Made by a program: the position numbers and the translations under genes. Below the pieces are notes generated by a model that did not search any database, was not told where the DNA came from, and worked only from the letters and a program-made list of their open reading frames with translations. DNA of 58,402 nucleotides from the IMG/VR virus record IMGVR_UViG_3300030118_002679, positions 1 through 58,402 of that record; one strand, given 5' to 3'. Source of the DNA: a virus (lineage: Duplodnaviria; Caudoviricetes). How positions within the stretch are numbered: the stretch's first letter is position 1; every line of letters starts with the position of its first letter. Positions 8,152-55,308 of this stretch are shown one piece after another.

Positions 8152-8286
8152 ATGGCAATAAGTAGATCACAGATGAGGCAACAAATATCTAAACCTCCAC
8201 AGAAAAAAAAATTCAACAAGAAGAAAAGAGTTAGGATAATTCAAGGCAACAAAGGAAAATCAAAGAGCAAGATATTTACACGTTAA
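8152..8286 (+). CDS. 44-aa basic peptide whose N-terminus matches the MCP (not in ORF track)
   Basis: MAISRSQMRQQISKPPQKKKFNKKKRVRIIQGNKGKSKSKIFTR; ATG directly follows the endolysin stop. Confidence 0.65.
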   Translation: MAISRSQMRQQISKPPQKKKFNKKKRVRIIQGNKGKSKSKIFTR

Positions 8287-20341: not shown

Positions 20342-20369
20342 TTGACATCACATCTAGATGTGCTAATAT
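20342..20369 (+). promoter_or_regulatory. Sigma70 promoter with palindromic operator in the spacer
   Basis: TTGACA-tCACATCTAGATGTGc-TAATAT. Confidence 0.75.
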
Positions 20370-20391
20370 TAAAATAACAAAGGAGAAAATA

Positions 20392-20761: not shown

Positions 20762-20817
20762 TGTTTTTATTCAAAACTTCTCCAATTCAACCCTAACTAA
20801 TCAGTTAGGGTTTTTTT
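20762..20817 (+). ncRNA. Candidate small RNA 1 (anti-RBS)
   Basis: TTGCTA-17-TATCAT promoter at 20728-20756; contains TTTTTATTCA and TTCTCC; ends in a terminator. Confidence 0.4.
20789..20817 (+). terminator. Rho-independent terminator
   Basis: AACCCTAACT-AATC-AGTTAGGGTT followed by a T-run. Confidence 0.85.
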
Positions 20818-20854
20818 GTTGATCTATCATGTTTTTTATGCGATTATATGTGCT

Positions 20855-38605: not shown

Positions 38606-38630
38606 TTTTTTCTCCTTTGTTTATATATTA

Positions 38631-38658
38631 AATATAGCACATCTAGATGTGCCGTCAA
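38631..38658 (-). promoter_or_regulatory. Sigma70 promoter with 16-bp perfect palindrome as spacer
   Basis: Minus strand reads TTGACG-GCACATCTAGATGTGC-TATATT. Confidence 0.75.
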
Positions 38659-41328: not shown

Positions 41329-41512
41329 TTTTTTATCCTTTGTTTATTGTAAGAAAAATGTCTTACATATAAATAATAAATTATTTTTAATTTTATGTCA
41401 AATCATATCTCATCTAGATAAGCCTTAGTTTATAAGGGTTCTTGAACAAATATTTTTTTTTGTTTGACTTGCTGCATTTTTTTTTATACAACTTATCCAG
41501 AAAGGAGGTCTG
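41329..41512. promoter_or_regulatory. Divergent promoter region (early block vs replication operon)
   Basis: Leftward TTGACA near 41397-41402; degenerate operator CTCATCTAGATAAG at 41409-41422; rightward TTGACT at 41464. Confidence 0.55.
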
Positions 41513-49822: not shown

Positions 49823-50237
49823 AATACTCAAAATTATAACTGGTTTCATTATCTGCTAATAATTTAGCACCATTTCTTAGATGAAAGTTTTTAGCCATTT
49901 CAGTTTTTGGAGATAATGTCACATATCGTTTTGTTTGTAATAATTGTAATAATTCGTTAAGTATTAATCGACCATAACCTTTCTCATATGACCATACCGT
50001 ATAAAATATAGTAAACTCATCTGCTGCTGATAATGAATATATTTCCAACTGTTCCATATCAATAGGACATTTAAATGTATTAGCGATACATACTACTGCC
50101 TTACCTGGTATCGTATATATACATCTACCTTGTGATGTTCTAAAGGCATAACTTACATCACGTACTGGATCGTCTTTAATTTGTACTTGTGATTGATTAG
50201 TTACTTTTTTTAGTTTCGATTTTGTCTGGTGTGACAT
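49815..50237 (-). CDS. GNAT-fold protein with malonyl-CoA decarboxylase-like motifs
   Basis: IFYTVWS, GYGRLIL, VTLSP, NFHLRNGA. Confidence 0.6.
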   Translation of the reverse strand: MSHQTKSKLKKVTNQSQVQIKDDPVRDVSYAFRTSQGRCIYTIPGKAVVCIANTFKCPIDMEQLEIYSLSAADEFTIFYTVWSYEKGYGRLILNELLQLLQTKRYVTLSPKTEMAKNFHLRNGAKLLADNETSYNFEYFK

Positions 50238-50718
50238 CTATTATGTTTTTAGCCTCGCCTATTTTATGTTCAAGCTCCTCTAATCGTTTTTCTAATTGAT
50301 CTCTACTCATACCTTCTAATGTAGAGTGAGTTATTTGTTTATGATCTACGTATAGTCCAGCTAGTTGACCAGAACGATACTCAGCATTAATGGATGCATT
50401 AAACTGACCCTTGGCTGACGATTGATCTCTTAAATCATCTAATATCTTGTAGCGTCTTAATTTATCTTTCTCGTACTTTTCTTTTTCTTCACCTATTCTT
50501 TTTTCCATATAGCGGCAGATATGAGGATTGATATCTGGGTTCGTAAGCTTCGATGCAAGAACCATGGCACTCTCTCTTGTTTTCGTATTATAACCACTCT
50601 CGATTAACGCATCAGTCTTAGTTATCTTTCCCCAATTGTCTACTAATATATCTATAAACTTTTTTTGTTTATCAGTTAGGTCTTTTATAGATCTCAGTTC
50701 TCTTCTTTTTTGTGCCAT
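50197..50718 (-). CDS. terS: Terminase small subunit
   Basis: LTDKQKKF...ALIESGY...ASKL N-terminal HTH of the Terminase_2 type. Confidence 0.7.
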   Translation of the reverse strand: MAQKRRELRSIKDLTDKQKKFIDILVDNWGKITKTDALIESGYNTKTRESAMVLASKLTNPDINPHICRYMEKRIGEEKEKYEKDKLRRYKILDDLRDQSSAKGQFNASINAEYRSGQLAGLYVDHKQITHSTLEGMSRDQLEKRLEELEHKIGEAKNIIDVTPDKIETKKSN

Positions 50719-50747
50719 ATTGTTACCGTTTTTTTGTTAAATTTACC

Positions 50748-50962
50748 ATAAAGCACTTACTTAGAAAATAAAAAATAAAAAAAAATTGCAGCAAAAACAA
50801 TCCTCTGTAGCTATTTTTTCCCAAAATCTAGGAATTTTTCCCAAAGTTTTCCCAAAACTATTTCTCTGTAAGGGTATGTATTCTGGGATTTTTTCCATTT
50901 TCCCAAAATATTTGCTTATTCTACGCTATTAATATTTTTTTTTTTCTAAGCAGCTGCTTTAT
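50748..50962. repeat. Iteron array inside 30-bp inverted repeats (candidate origin or pac)
   Basis: IR 50748-50777/50933-50962 (26/30); TTTTCCCAAA at 50816, 50836, 50847, 50898. Confidence 0.7.
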
Positions 50963-50999
50963 AGAAAAATAAGAATTTAGGAAAAAATACATAAAACAC

Positions 51000-51030
51000 T
51001 TGCATCACTAATTCGATGTGCTATTATAAT
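51000..51030 (+). promoter_or_regulatory. Sigma70 promoter with degenerate operator
   Basis: TTGCAT-CACtaattcGATGTGC-TATTAT (TATAAT overlapping), then AACAAAGGAG. Confidence 0.65.
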
Positions 51031-51052
51031 AGTATAAACAAAGGAGAAATAA

Positions 51053-51403
51053 ATGAATAATAAACAATATAAATGGGAAAGCAGCAGTATGATGATAAAA
51101 TCTGTTACTGAAGAATTAGTAAAAAAATCAATTAAAGATGGTTGGGCAGTGAGTGTTTTTCTTGACAGTCACACTTGCATACTTAAAAACAGTAAATGTT
51201 TTGATCAAATTATGTGGAACTTACACCAAGGTTGTTTTGATGGTGAATCAGTACAAGTTTGTATTAGTAAAGGTAATAAAAAAGATTACTGTACTGTACT
51301 TTTAAATCAAGGTTCACCAGATCAAGAAATTTGTCATATTTATTATGATAATTATATTTCTGATTGGTGTTTTAAAACTAATAACGGACAAAAGGAGATA
51401 TAA
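51053..51403 (+). CDS. Hypothetical Cys-rich early protein
   Basis: Strong RBS; MNNKQY start like MNKKQY of 20392. Confidence 0.7.
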   Translation: MNNKQYKWESSSMMIKSVTEELVKKSIKDGWAVSVFLDSHTCILKNSKCFDQIMWNLHQGCFDGESVQVCISKGNKKDYCTVLLNQGSPDQEICHIYYDNYISDWCFKTNNGQKEI

Positions 51404-51531
51404 GCATTTATTGTAGCTCTCTTCGGAGAGTTACGACAAGTGTTTAACACTTGATAAGAGGACACGTTATGTAAACCCTGTCCGTATGTAGAGAGTTTTG
51501 GGATCTACCTGGTTGTAATGTGTCTTCTTAT
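51404..51531 (+). ncRNA. Structured intergenic RNA (two long G:U-containing stems)
   Basis: 18-bp stem with cUUCGg loop at 51404-51443; 18-bp stem 51454-51471/51514-51531. Confidence 0.5.
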
Positions 51532-51547
51532 GTAATAAAAGGATAAA

Positions 51548-52555
51548 ATGAGTAAATTTGTAAAATTAATACAAGTAGATGGTAAGTTGCCTAATTTAGC
51601 ATTGATGAAATTAAGTTCATATTATAAAGAAAATGGTTATCAAGTAGATTTTACCAGATCAGTTCATAAAGATTTGTTTGATAAGAACTATCACTTTGTT
51701 TTTGCGTCAAGCATTTTTAAATTTAGTAAAAACAGAATACAAAGACTTAAACAAAATTATCCTAAAGCAATAATAGGGGGAACTGGCACTGATGATTGGA
51801 AACTATCTATAGAAGACTATATTGGTGATTATGATAAATATGATTACACAATTTATCCAGAATATAATTTTAGTTTAGGCTTTACCCAAAGAGGGTGCAG
51901 ACTAAAATGTAAATTTTGTGTTGTACCTATTAAAGAGGGAAAAAACAGATCAGTAATTAATTCAGTGTATGATATTTGGAGGGGAGAAGGTTATCCAAAA
52001 AAGCTGCATCTTTTAGATAATGACTTCTTTGGACAACCAGAAGAGCAATGGAAATTAAGAGTAAAAGAAATACAAGAGGGCAAATTTCAAGTATGTTTTA
52101 ATCAAGGCATAAATATAAGATTGATAGACGAAACAGTAGCAGAAAACTTGGCTACTATAAATTTTAAAGATGATTCTTTTACAAGAAAAAGAATTTACAC
52201 AGCTTGGGATAATATCGGAGATGAAAAAAGATTTTTTAAGGGTGTTAACTTATTAGTAAAGTATGGAATAAAGCCAAATCAAATAATGGCATATATGTTA
52301 ATTGGTTATGATAAAAGAGAAACTTGGGATCGCATATGGTATAGATTTAATAAGATGGTAGATGTTGGTGTGTATCCTTATCCAATGGTATATGATCCTT
52401 TACAACAAAAAACAGAATTAAAACAATTCCAAAGGTATGCAGTACGTCAATATTATAGACACAAAACATGGAAAGAATATTTATACTGGTACAATAATAG
52501 AAGTATATCCAGTATGGATCAAAAGAAGCAAATAGATTTATATGAAAACAAATAA
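51548..52555 (+). CDS. Radical SAM enzyme
   Basis: TQRGCRLKCKFCVV (CxxxCxxC); PNLALMKLS N-domain; LLDNDF. Confidence 0.88.
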   Translation: MSKFVKLIQVDGKLPNLALMKLSSYYKENGYQVDFTRSVHKDLFDKNYHFVFASSIFKFSKNRIQRLKQNYPKAIIGGTGTDDWKLSIEDYIGDYDKYDYTIYPEYNFSLGFTQRGCRLKCKFCVVPIKEGKNRSVINSVYDIWRGEGYPKKLHLLDNDFFGQPEEQWKLRVKEIQEGKFQVCFNQGINIRLIDETVAENLATINFKDDSFTRKRIYTAWDNIGDEKRFFKGVNLLVKYGIKPNQIMAYMLIGYDKRETWDRIWYRFNKMVDVGVYPYPMVYDPLQQKTELKQFQRYAVRQYYRHKTWKEYLYWYNNRSISSMDQKKQIDLYENK

Positions 52556-52571
52556 AAAAAAGGAGAATAAA

Positions 52572-52778
52572 ATGAGTAAATTTAAAGATCACTTAATGCA
52601 AAAAGAACAACAGTTAGATGAACAAATTATTTTTATGAATAAGATGATTAACAATACACAATCTGTTATTGATAAATCTAATGATACTTGGATCATAAGA
52701 TATTGGACTAATGTTCGTAATACCCTACAAGAACAACAAAAAGATTTACAAAAACAAAAGACAGGAATTAGTTATTGA
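52572..52778 (+). CDS. Hypothetical coiled-coil protein (ATG 52572 preferred)
   Basis: AAGGAG RBS. Confidence 0.6.
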   Translation: MSKFKDHLMQKEQQLDEQIIFMNKMINNTQSVIDKSNDTWIIRYWTNVRNTLQEQQKDLQKQKTGISY

Positions 52779-52809
52779 TATTCCTTAAACAATCGTTTAA
52801 GGTTGTGTT

Positions 52810-52873
52810 GTCACCACTATGTGACTATCCTTTGTTGCACCTGGTAGCGTCATTTCTGCTGGGTGCTACTTTT
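52810..52873 (+). ncRNA. Candidate small RNA 2 (hairpin, anti-leader seed, terminator-like hairpin)
   Basis: TTGATA-17-TAAGGT promoter; GTCAC/GTGAC hairpin; single-stranded TATCCTTTGTT; 11-bp stem with 3 G:U pairs; TACTTTT. Confidence 0.45.
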
Positions 52874-52887
52874 GTAAAAAGGTCATC

Positions 52888-53298
52888 ATGGAAAAAAATT
52901 TGTGGTCTTCACTTAACCAAATACAAAAGACAGATCCAATGATGTTTTTAATGAGAGTAGAATCTAGTACAATCAACGGAATACCTGACGTTCACGCATG
53001 TCATAAAGGTCATTCTTTTTGGTTAGAGTTGAAATCAAATGATGATAAGAAATATGGCTTATCCAAATATCAAATTATCTGGCAGATAGATTATTTAAAT
53101 GTAGGAGGCAATGTATTCAACTTAGTTTTGGCCCCCTCGCAGAGGGCACTCAAACTTGTGAGATTGAATCCAGCTTTGTTCTCATTTTGTACTGGGTTTG
53201 TGCCGCATGAAAAAAGTTTCCAGGTGCTCGGATCTAAACCGTATAACAAAAAAAATTTACAATCTATAATTAAGTTGGCAAGTGATTCGTGTCGTTAG
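52888..53298 (+). CDS. PD-(D/E)xK nuclease, VRR-NUC / Holliday-junction resolvase-like
   Basis: RVES...GIPDV...FWLELK...LSKYQIIWQ. Confidence 0.85.
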   Translation: MEKNLWSSLNQIQKTDPMMFLMRVESSTINGIPDVHACHKGHSFWLELKSNDDKKYGLSKYQIIWQIDYLNVGGNVFNLVLAPSQRALKLVRLNPALFSFCTGFVPHEKSFQVLGSKPYNKKNLQSIIKLASDSCR

Positions 53299-53324
53299 TT
53301 CGCATAACTGTTATTATGTTAAAA
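53297..53324 (+). other. dif-like XerC/XerD recombination site
   Basis: AGTTCGCATAA-CTGTTA-TTATGTTAAAA vs E. coli GGTGCGCATAA-TGTATA-TTATGTTAAAT (arms 9/11 and 10/11). Confidence 0.8.
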
Positions 53325-53518
53325 AAAGGCGTTTGTTCTATCTTTGTTCCGCATGGGCCGTAAAAGAAGGCTCAAGATTTTTTGGCAATAGTCAAGTATT
53401 ATTTTATTTTTTTTTGGGGGTCGCAAAAATTTATGTTACTGTGCGTATAGCTATAGGTTGAGTTGAATACATACATATAGGGAGTAAACATATCGGTTGT
53501 TTTATGTTATAAAAAATT

Positions 53519-53836
53519 ATGGCAAAAAAATTACAAAAAAATTCTAACTATGCACAATACGATATAAATAATGATGGAACAGTATCTGATGAAGAACTGG
53601 AGCATATGAAAGAAATAAAAAGATTAGAAGGTGAATTAAGAAAGCATAGAGCACAAAGAAGAATGGCGACATTTACTTTAGTTGGTATGGGATTATTCAC
53701 TGCTATGATGTTTATGCCTTTTATGACTGTAGAAAAAATAGATGCTCTTAGTGACATTAGTAATTTGTTTTATATTTCTGGAGCAGGTATTGTTGGTGCA
53801 TATATGGGAGCAACAGCCTGGATGTCAAAAAAATAA
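53519..53836 (+). CDS. EF-hand-containing two-TM membrane protein
   Basis: YDINNDGTVSDEEL loop followed by two hydrophobic helices. Confidence 0.75.
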   Translation: MAKKLQKNSNYAQYDINNDGTVSDEELEHMKEIKRLEGELRKHRAQRRMATFTLVGMGLFTAMMFMPFMTVEKIDALSDISNLFYISGAGIVGAYMGATAWMSKK

Positions 53837-55308
53837 TGAGTGTTGATCATCTAACTACTGATAGATTAAGACTAAAAGTAGAAAAAGTTTTTATACAACA
53901 TATAAAACTTTGCCAAGATAATTTTTTATATTTTGTACAAGAGATGTGGCAAGATTTTATTTGCAGAAAAGAAAAAGATAAAAGTAAATGGGGTCATCAT
54001 CAAATTATTGCAAATGAGTTTTCTCAAATAGCTAATAAAAGAAAAGGAAGGCTCATAATTAACATGCCTCCAAGACATACTAAATCAGAATTTGCATCTG
54101 TATATTTTCCAGCTTGGATCATAGGGAAGTTTCCAAAATTAAAAATTATGCAAGTGTCACATAACACAGAACTAGCAGTTCGTTTTGGAAGTAAGGTTCG
54201 TAACATAATAGATTCTCAAGAGTACAAACAAATTTTTGGAGATGTAAAATTACGTGAAGACTCTAAAGCTAAAGGAAGATGGGAAACTAATCATGGTGGT
54301 GAATATTATGCAGCTGGTGTAGGGGCATCAATAACTGGTCGTGGTGCAGATTTATTAATCATTGATGATCCACATACGGAACAAGATTCAATGTCTGACT
54401 TAGCTATGGAACGAGCATATGATTGGTATACATCCGGACCCAGACAAAGATTACAACCTGGCGGATCTATTCTTTTGGTTATGACAAGATGGGCCGAAGA
54501 TGATTTGACTGGTAGATTATTGAAGGCTCAAAAAGAACCCAAAGCTGATACATGGAAAACAATATCTTTTCCTGCGATCTTACCAGATGGTAAACCAGTG
54601 TGGTCAGAATATTGGGAGAAAGAAGAATTAGAAAAGATCAAAGCTTCATTACCCATAAGAAATTGGTCAGCACAATATATGCAAGAGCCTACTTCCGAAG
54701 AAGGTGCGATTATCAAACGAGAATGGTGGCAACCTTGGAAAGAGGAATCCATGCCAAACTTAGTTCATGTCATACAAAGTTATGACACAGCGTTTAGTAA
54801 AAAAGAAACAGCAGACTATTCTGCTATTACTACTTGGGGTGTTTTTTATCCAGATGAAGTTACACCTAATATTATTTTGTTAGATGCTTTACGTGGTAAA
54901 TATGATTTTCCAGAATTGAAAGTAGTGGCAATGGATGCGTATAAATATTGGGAACCAGAAAGTGTAATCATAGAACAAAAAGCAAGTGGTGAACCTTTAA
55001 CTCAAGAATTTAGAAGAATGGGAATACCAGTGATACCATTTGTGCCAAGTAAAGGTAATGATAAATTTACCAGAGTAAATTCAGTAGCACCAATTTTTGA
55101 AAGCGGTGCAGTGTGGTTTCCTTACGGAGAAACTTTTTCAGATGAGGTAATAGAAGAGTGTGCAGCGTTCCCTCATGGTGCAAACGATGATTACGTTGAC
55201 AGTATGACCCAAGCACTGTTACGATATAGACAAGGTAACTTTGTTGAACTATACTCTGATTATGTGGACAATGAAGACTTACCACCAAAACAATATAATT
55301 ATTATTGA
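53836..55308 (+). CDS. terL: Terminase large subunit
   Basis: INMPPRHTKS, ITGRGADLLIIDDP, VMTRW, SYDTA, IEQKASG, DDYVDS. Confidence 0.95.
   Translation: MSVDHLTTDRLRLKVEKVFIQHIKLCQDNFLYFVQEMWQDFICRKEKDKSKWGHHQIIANEFSQIANKRKGRLIINMPPRHTKSEFASVYFPAWIIGKFPKLKIMQVSHNTELAVRFGSKVRNIIDSQEYKQIFGDVKLREDSKAKGRWETNHGGEYYAAGVGASITGRGADLLIIDDPHTEQDSMSDLAMERAYDWYTSGPRQRLQPGGSILLVMTRWAEDDLTGRLLKAQKEPKADTWKTISFPAILPDGKPVWSEYWEKEELEKIKASLPIRNWSAQYMQEPTSEEGAIIKREWWQPWKEESMPNLVHVIQSYDTAFSKKETADYSAITTWGVFYPDEVTPNIILLDALRGKYDFPELKVVAMDAYKYWEPESVIIEQKASGEPLTQEFRRMGIPVIPFVPSKGNDKFTRVNSVAPIFESGAVWFPYGETFSDEVIEECAAFPHGANDDYVDSMTQALLRYRQGNFVELYSDYVDNEDLPPKQYNYY

Follow-up and report, generated by a model that had tools for sequence, protein, structure and literature searches.

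The DNA analysed here, which we call the window, is a stretch of 58,402 nucleotides that makes up a whole IMG/VR virus entry (58,402 bp), rated 98% complete. It belongs to an uncultured HTVC023P-type Pelagibacter phage, an abundant ocean phage, and its TerL region shows 73% nucleotide identity to Pelagibacter phage HTVC023P and 69% to HTVC027P and phage 023Pt_psg01. The G+C content is about 31%, and the + strand carries almost all of the genes. The element described below occupies a spacer between a small open reading frame, p68, and a gene for a nuclease-like protein. The locus is organized as follows.

52572..52778, + strand: p68, an open reading frame of 68 aa, directly 5' of the element in every case
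52775..52780, + strand: -35-like hexamer TTGATA, overlapping the TGA stop codon of p68
52779-52887, + strand: spacer of 109 nt with the element, from the p68 gene to the nuclease-like gene
52783..52802, + strand: hairpin H1, 8 bp with an AAUC loop, CCTTAAAC-aatc-GTTTAAGG, then UUGUGUUGU; terminator-like
52798..52803, + strand: -10-like hexamer TAAGGT, 17 nt after TTGATA; matches TATAAT at 3 of 6 positions
52810..52825, + strand: hairpin H2, 5 bp with a variable loop, GTCAC-cactat-GTGAC
52826..52836, + strand: unpaired "seed", TATCCTTTGTT / UAUCCUUUGUU
52828-52836, + strand: invariant seed core UCCUUUGUU, an unpaired 9-mer
52837..52866, + strand: hairpin H3, 11 bp with an 8-nt loop (52837-52847 pairs with 52856-52866)
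52867..52875, + strand: U-rich tail after H3, UACUUUUGU; tail read as TACTTTTGT
52878..52890, + strand: AAAGG Shine-Dalgarno site and ATG of the nuclease-like gene
52888..53298, + strand: nuclease-like gene, 136 aa, directly 3' of the element in every case

No Pfam or PHROG family was matched by p68. Its homologue in the complete genome G002 is 82% identical in amino acid sequence, and that of G001, also complete, is divergent, with an identical ISY-stop ending; the TGA stop codon (52776-52778) forms the first part of an invariant block, TGATATTCC. The 136-aa product of the downstream gene matches phrog_2165 (1.2e-11) and phrog_93, an endonuclease family (5.5e-4), and contains a PD...ELK motif, read by eye, as in a PD-(D/E)xK-like nuclease; a Pfam search gave no match. 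Further 5' of p68, in the same direction, lie a radical-SAM gene and gene 51053, the latter with a sigma70-like promoter in front and divergent from the small terminase subunit gene. The nuclease-like gene is followed by the genes for a small membrane protein and TerL, and the structural genes also lie downstream.

The small terminase subunit gene is separated from the divergent early promoter by a 330-nt spacer, in which four direct copies of TTTTCCCAAA(A/G)(T/C) are found at 50816-50909 and an inverted copy near 50972. These repeats recur in locus L045 (1170-1290), and similar GTTTTAGGAAA repeats are found 5' of the nuclease gene of the relative G003. Judging from their sequence, repeats of this type look like a pac site or origin iterons.

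Folding and transcription signals of the spacer

The sequence features underlying the original prediction, which interpreted this region as a trans-acting small RNA with its own promoter, are all found where they had been placed. A third hairpin, H1, had been missed, and it encloses the proposed -10 hexamer. The + strand of 52779-52887 folds at -33.0 kcal/mol (z = -4.43, with none of 200 shuffles as good) and the minus strand at -26.2 kcal/mol (z = -3.72). H3 (-16.7 kcal/mol) exceeds in stability every other terminator-like hairpin found on the + strand of the window, and three of its pairs are G:U (T42-G61, G43-T60 and T45-G58). The seed is unpaired in a 68-nt fold, and its probability of being unpaired is 0.49-0.98 in the long context of the window.

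ARAGORN detected no tRNA or tmRNA, and a tRNA, tmRNA or attP remnant was rejected on this ground. None of the Rfam 15 covariance models matched anywhere in the window at its gathering score; within 52700-52950, at E <= 10, the best match (E = 1.1) was far below gathering and none was meaningful. Elsewhere in the window, an intrinsic terminator of canonical form lies at 20788-20819, after gene 20392, with the hairpin AACCCTAACT-aatc-AGTTAGGGTT and seven T residues behind it; it gives a weak match (23 bits, E = 0.04) to the covariance model of the element.

The proposed promoter, TTGATA-17-TAAGGT, may be genuine, but the signs are mixed. In the 19 distinct variants of the element, which come from viral and metagenome contigs, TGATA is invariant, the preceding T was read in nine sequences, and the p68 stop codon, always TGA, supplies the G of TTG in the -35-like hexamer. 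The -10-like hexamer is TAAGGT in 12 of the 19 and TAGGGT in the other 7, with the T, A and final T kept in all; the 17-nt spacing is fixed in 19/19, and H2 always follows at a distance of 6-7 nt, the expected position of a transcript start. On the other side, the -10 matches at only half of its positions, the site falls below the scan threshold (9/12), and promoter-like sites in 50000-55000 are no commoner than in shuffled sequence (25 versus 26.9 ± 4.8). Furthermore, the -10 lies within the 3' arm of H1, a stem that covaries (CCUU/AAGG, CCCU/AGGG, CCUUACU/AGUAAGG). It follows that RNA from upstream covers the -10 and that at least some transcripts start upstream.

The signs of termination at H3 are likewise mixed. 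The 11-bp stem with its three G:U pairs is present, but the U tract behind it is interrupted and imperfect: of the 8 nt that follow the stem, 3-6 are U (5 or more in 14 of the 19 variants, 3-4 in the other 5). There are four terminator-like sites in 50000-55000, three of them being H1, H2 and H3. Across the variants, the nuclease ATG follows H3 at a distance of 9-23 nt, which leaves no room for another promoter, so that read-through is obligatory and H3 is probably not an efficient terminator. For the same reason, the element must at a minimum serve as 5' leader of the nuclease mRNA, and a short RNA, if there is one, would come from partial termination or processing. A pelagiphage transcriptome study used HTVC027P, a phage without the element (PMC12753301), and a full-text literature search found no paper on pelagiphage small RNAs.

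Distribution and covariation of the element

Searching viral contigs with the nuclease protein yielded four near relatives, in which the spacer is 94% identical and more conserved than the flanking coding sequence, and all differences within H1 and H3 keep pairing. A TerL search retrieved 80 loci. A covariance model based on 8 sequences recovered the element, at E < 1e-8, in 20 loci besides the window. It is present in every locus with a TerL identity of at least 91% and enough upstream sequence, and in no locus at 88% or below. A metagenome scan with the nuclease alignment gave a similarly sharp boundary: at an identity of at least 58%, the element was found upstream in 19 of 20 loci, the twentieth having no upstream DNA, and at 57% or below in 0 of 60 loci (E <= 1), the upstream regions of these more distant nuclease genes being unrelated. 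The cultured phages HTVC023P and HTVC027P and the complete relatives G003 and G004 lack the element at E <= 1; the sole trace in this set is one weak H1-like match in G003, where the hairpin stands before an operator-promoter. A 15-mer scan of viral contigs returned 116 stretches, with 13 real elements among the first 100, and a two-anchor pattern returned 48, of which 20 were new and a single one of these real, the others being unrelated sequence. Neither hunt turned up a variant with a changed seed.

The covariation is extensive. In an alignment of 14 rows fitted to the covariance model, 334 of 334 cells pair, including 100% of the H1 cells, and 14 of 24 pairs are changed on both sides (4 of 8 in H1, 3 of 5 in H2 and 7 of 11 in H3), so that all three stems have been rebuilt by compensatory changes. 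None of 500 shuffles matched any of the five covariation measures, and sliding the partners reduced pairing to 28-42%. An independent MAFFT alignment gave 96.8% pairing, with the misses stemming from one misaligned row. The alignment contains 38 G:U cells, which would be C:A on the other strand, and no non-standard or A:C cells on the + strand. This asymmetry points to an RNA of the + strand and led us to reject a minus-strand RNA as well as a DNA-level palindrome or cruciform.

The loops differ in both sequence and length, and the indels in the loops of H2 and H3 are not multiples of three, which excludes a coding reading, such as a read-through extension of p68. While loops and stems change, UCCUUUGUU is identical in 19 of 19 variants, and the unpaired block with this core is the only invariant single-stranded stretch; the other invariant parts are TGATATTCC, which joins the p68 stop codon to the start of H1, the GGT after H1, and the base of H3. 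The conservation expected of a seed is thus borne out for the 9-nt core, and the two additional bases of the originally proposed seed vary among relatives.

These comparisons support the existence of a real, conserved, structured RNA encoded on the + strand. The RNA is new and restricted to one clade, and its covariation is unusually clean.

Complementarity to the leaders of early operons

The core UCCUUUGUU is the exact complement of AACAAAGGA, and the invariant block is bounded at the same positions as the leader motif. The window contains six copies of AACAAAGGA, compared to 1.40 ± 1.21 in 100 shuffles, none of which reached six. Four of these sites are each located 7 nt 5' of an ATG and cover the Shine-Dalgarno site. 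The six copies are as follows.

20376..20384, + strand: AACAAAGGA in the leader of gene 20392, after TTGACA-operator-TAATAT
38613..38621, - strand: AACAAAGGA in the leader of gene 38605, after TTGACG-operator-TATATT
41334..41344, - strand: AACAAAGGATA in the leader of gene 41328, an 11/11 seed match, with AACAAAGGA at 41336
51037..51045, + strand: AACAAAGGA in the leader of gene 51053, the first gene of the element's operon
8248, + strand: AACAAAGGA, not adjoining a start codon
Minus strand of the seed itself: AACAAAGGA, the sixth copy

The 9/9 matches claimed for the leaders of 20392, 38605 and 51053 are therefore present, over the Shine-Dalgarno sites; the 11/11 match to the leader of 41328 is real but specific to the window. 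The promoters of the first three genes consist of a TTGAC(A/G) -35 hexamer, a CACATCTAGATGTG-type palindrome and a -10 hexamer, followed by AACAAAGGA, and in the leader of 41328, the promoter is followed by a leader hairpin and then by AACAAAGGATA.

Several further features of these leaders were observed. The CACATCTAGATGTG-type palindromes lie between -35 and -10 (within 20342-20391, 38606-38658 on the - strand, and 51000-51052), and equivalent promoters contain the repeat ATGTGATATGATTTGATAT in G001, G002, G005 and G007 and ATAAGATATATCTTAT in G003; the operators turn over between genomes and the leader AACAAAGGA stays. The leader hairpin of gene 41328, GUAAGACAUUUUUCUUAC (41345-41375, - strand), is conserved and stands directly 5' of AAUAAACAAAGGA. 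Its version in the relatives, GUGAGACAUUUUUCUCA (G001 35899, G002 14979, G005 33498, G007 15473), precedes the gene for a 310-aa protein with a HELVHW motif that, judged by eye, looks ArdC-like. No homologue of this 310-aa target gene was found in the element-lacking genomes. At 8246-8256, GCAACAAAGGA is complementary over 11 nt to the seed together with the first base of H3. This match lies in a spacer, with the ATG of gene 8321 65 nt further on and the promoter-like site of that gene in between, and it is not associated with a ribosome site.

The numbers of AACAAAGGA copies at the Shine-Dalgarno position, by genome, are as follows.

Window, element present: 4
G001 (complete), element present: 6
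G002 (complete), element present: 5
G005 (complete), element present: 6
G006 (partial), element present: 2
G007 (partial), element present: 6
G003, element absent: 1
G004, element absent: 1
HTVC023P, element absent: 3

In the window and the related genomes, AACAAAGGA precedes the ATG or other start codon by 6-11 nt. Most of the sites in element-bearing genomes are directly 3' of TTGAC-N17-TATAAT-like promoters, with operators that differ between genomes. The genes behind these leaders are mostly unrelated (30 genes in 22 clusters), which implies that AACAAAGGA travels with a promoter-leader cassette, not with a particular gene. All six element-bearing genomes have at least one target leader upstream in the element's own operon, in the same direction. 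The counts of 4, 6, 5 and 6 with the element against 1, 1 and 3 without it follow the phylogeny exactly and are, for that reason, weak evidence. A dependence of the leader motif on the RNA is made less likely by HTVC023P, which lacks the element and yet has three AACAAAGGA ribosome sites. Such sites in relatives without the element indicate that the motif is the older of the two; if the element targets AACAAAGGA, it would have adopted an older flavour of ribosome site. HTVC023P, a phage without the element, has a related leader motif, (A)ACUAACAAAG(G/C)GAG, in several leaders of the region from the small to the large terminase subunit gene (L252 13040-16620).

The energetics of pairing can be compared with those of the ribosome itself. 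The 3' end of SAR11 16S rRNA is GGAUUACCUCCUUUCU: 120 loci yielded 104 3' ends, and 101 of these have this sequence. In the leader, AAAGGAG is the Shine-Dalgarno site proper, and a conserved AAC lies 5' of it that is not accounted for by rRNA pairing and is matched by the GUU of the seed. The predicted duplex energies are -11.6 to -14.2 kcal/mol for the leaders with the seed and -5.9 to -9.2 kcal/mol for the same leaders with the host 16S tail, the seed-leader duplex being the more stable by 2.4-8.3 kcal/mol.

Specificity for the proposed regulon is less clear. When the seed is ranked against the start regions of the window, the four leaders come out at places 2, 3, 6 and 7 of 85, and other starts score as well as they do. 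Genomes without the element give similar best duplex energies (-12.3 to -12.6), and 5% of shuffled 9-mer cores have as many strong partners, a modest result. The seed is an anti-Shine-Dalgarno sequence and hence pairs with many starts. Matches in the flanks were found (UAU with GGAUA in the window, UUUU with GGAAAA in G002); a lineage-specific extension of the duplex was nevertheless rejected, since the seed flanks confer no consistent advantage on own over swapped leaders, the A-rich spacers being generic.

Candidate roles of the element

The structure of the element, its strand, the invariance of the core and its complementarity to the leaders are observed, and structure, invariant seed and complementarity all favor the trans-acting RNA originally proposed; the promoter, efficient termination and target specificity are its weak points. 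The best single reading, which we adopt only tentatively, is an Hfq-independent anti-leader RNA that is the nuclease leader itself or a fragment of it. Under this reading, the spacer would be transcribed from the + strand into a structured regulatory RNA in which two or three scaffold hairpins present UCCUUUGUU as a single-stranded 9-mer. Two origins are conceivable: the RNA may form the 5' part of the nuclease/late transcript as its leader, or it may be a short species with its 3' end at H3 and its 5' end near H2 or at a processing site between H1 and H2. Through the 9-mer, it would pair with AACAAAGGA, which spans the 5' end and the Shine-Dalgarno site of short leaders behind sigma70-type early promoters, and would thereby block ribosome binding. 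With a leader of its own operon among the targets, the outcome would be negative feedback or early shut-off. The ends of the transcript, its pairing in the cell and any influence on translation are inferences. Hfq (PF17209) was found in neither of two Pelagibacter genomes (G008 and G009, about 1.4 Mb each); 5 of 14 control genomes were positive. Any pairing would accordingly be Hfq-independent in such hosts. A broader proposal is that all sigma70-driven early operons are silenced at once via their shared 5'-terminal AACAAAGGA, either by the leader of the nuclease/packaging mRNA or by a short RNA released from it by cleavage or termination; this is possible, but less probable still.

Somewhat less probable again is a role in cis, in which the anti-Shine-Dalgarno block would pair with the Shine-Dalgarno site of the nuclease gene across H3 and keep the nuclease silent on read-through early transcripts until opened by temperature, a protein or upstream ribosomes. 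This would fit the position of the element, which always adjoins the nuclease start, 9-23 nt after H3, and, among the 20 nuclease homologues with at least 58% identity, precedes all but the one that has no upstream sequence. Against it, no such leader precedes the homologues at 57% identity or less (0/60 loci, E <= 1). Folding is equivocal. In 6 of 14 folded variants, UCCU pairs with a downstream AGGA at P > 0.8, and in the window and locus L001 at P of about 0.27-0.31, the centroid fold of the window having CCUU:AAGG; in 8 of the 14, the predicted pairing is weak or absent. The seed is still invariant in L024-type variants, which have no Shine-Dalgarno site, and in L021, which has only a poor GAGA. 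In most variants, only 3-5 nt can pair, which leaves the invariance of 9 nt unaccounted for, and the Shine-Dalgarno side varies without a response on the anti-Shine-Dalgarno side. Sequestration in cis may operate in some lineages, but it does not account for the invariance of the seed.

We regard as unlikely that the element serves only to terminate or insulate transcription and to stabilize RNA where the early operon meets the packaging and late genes. H1 and H3 would then attenuate read-through and protect RNA ends, and the match between seed and leaders would be incidental. In favor of this role, all but one of the four terminator-like sites in 50000-55000 belong to the element, no such hairpin on the + strand is more stable than H3, most variants have U-rich tails behind H1 and H3, and the genes for the large terminase subunit and structural proteins lie downstream; the H1-like hairpin of G003, too, stands before an operator-promoter. 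However, neither an invariant single-stranded stretch of 9 nt nor an invariant TGATATTCC is needed for such a function, the canonical terminators of this phage have uninterrupted U runs (for example at 20788-20819), which H3 lacks, and the downstream gene requires read-through.

Less probable by a clear step is an RNA operator, in which the invariant strand would bind an RNA-binding protein of phage or host, such as a translational repressor or p68. An unpaired invariant sequence between covarying stems resembles a protein site, and p68 always adjoins the element, but searches of p68 and its neighbours for families revealed no domain for RNA binding, and under this reading one would expect a copy of a site shared with the leaders, whereas the sequence exactly complements them. 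A boxA/nut mimic was rejected, the block resembling nothing conserved in SAR11 rrn leaders: TCCTTTG and CCTTTGTT occur in none of 83 SAR11 16S upstream regions (400 nt).

An anti-leader RNA would have several parallels among known systems. The c4 antisense RNA of phages P1 and P7 and the related CI RNA of P4 and CB RNA of N15 are small structured phage RNAs that lie in the transcription unit of their targets, and their unpaired stretches pair with short sites in leaders and cover the ribosome-binding site. By analogy, c4 RNA would be the closest in working, and the element, too, would give RNA-level control layered on protein repressors. The differences are that c4 RNA uses two loop sites, as opposed to a single 9-nt seed here, that it belongs to an immunity system of temperate phages, whereas the present phage is apparently lytic, and that c4-type RNAs are processed, whereas processing of this element is putative. 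Rfam presumably contains a c4 model; no Rfam 15 family matches, and the element is filed under none.

In architecture, the element resembles CpxQ, DapZ and SreA, enterobacterial small RNAs that derive from 3' UTRs or leaders and have the seed just 5' of the terminator hairpin. Like these, it has one hairpin on the 5' side and a GC-rich one on the 3' side, the latter followed by a U-rich tail, with a conserved single-stranded seed between them, and it is embedded in an mRNA rather than being a free-standing gene; in contrast to them, it has an imperfect U-tract and a coding gene that starts 9-23 nt after the hairpin, and two SAR11 genomes show no Hfq. RNAIII and the Rsa RNAs of S. aureus have UCCC motifs, pyrimidine-rich anti-Shine-Dalgarno seeds that act independently of Hfq. 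The seed of the element is likewise complementary to Shine-Dalgarno sequences, as a predicted competitor of the 16S tail, but the staphylococcal motifs sit in C-rich hairpin loops and the element has one linker seed, any specificity of which would come from the 3-nt extension (GUU:AAC) beyond the Shine-Dalgarno core. With intrinsic terminators and RNA thermometers, finally, the element shares GC-rich hairpins, U-rich tails and an anti-Shine-Dalgarno block near a Shine-Dalgarno site; it differs from both in its invariant single-stranded 9 nt and obligatory read-through, and from thermometers in that some lineages have no Shine-Dalgarno partner.

The element is a new structured RNA motif even if the trans-acting reading fails, and the covariance model in hand allows it to be annotated in marine viromes. 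If the broader anti-leader reading is true, a lytic SAR11 phage would time its own programme with RNA, in a host that is minimally regulated and has no detectable Hfq. A conserved, covarying RNA with a plausible regulon-wide target provides a testable handle on post-transcriptional control in a phage-host pair in which protein regulators and Hfq are scarce.
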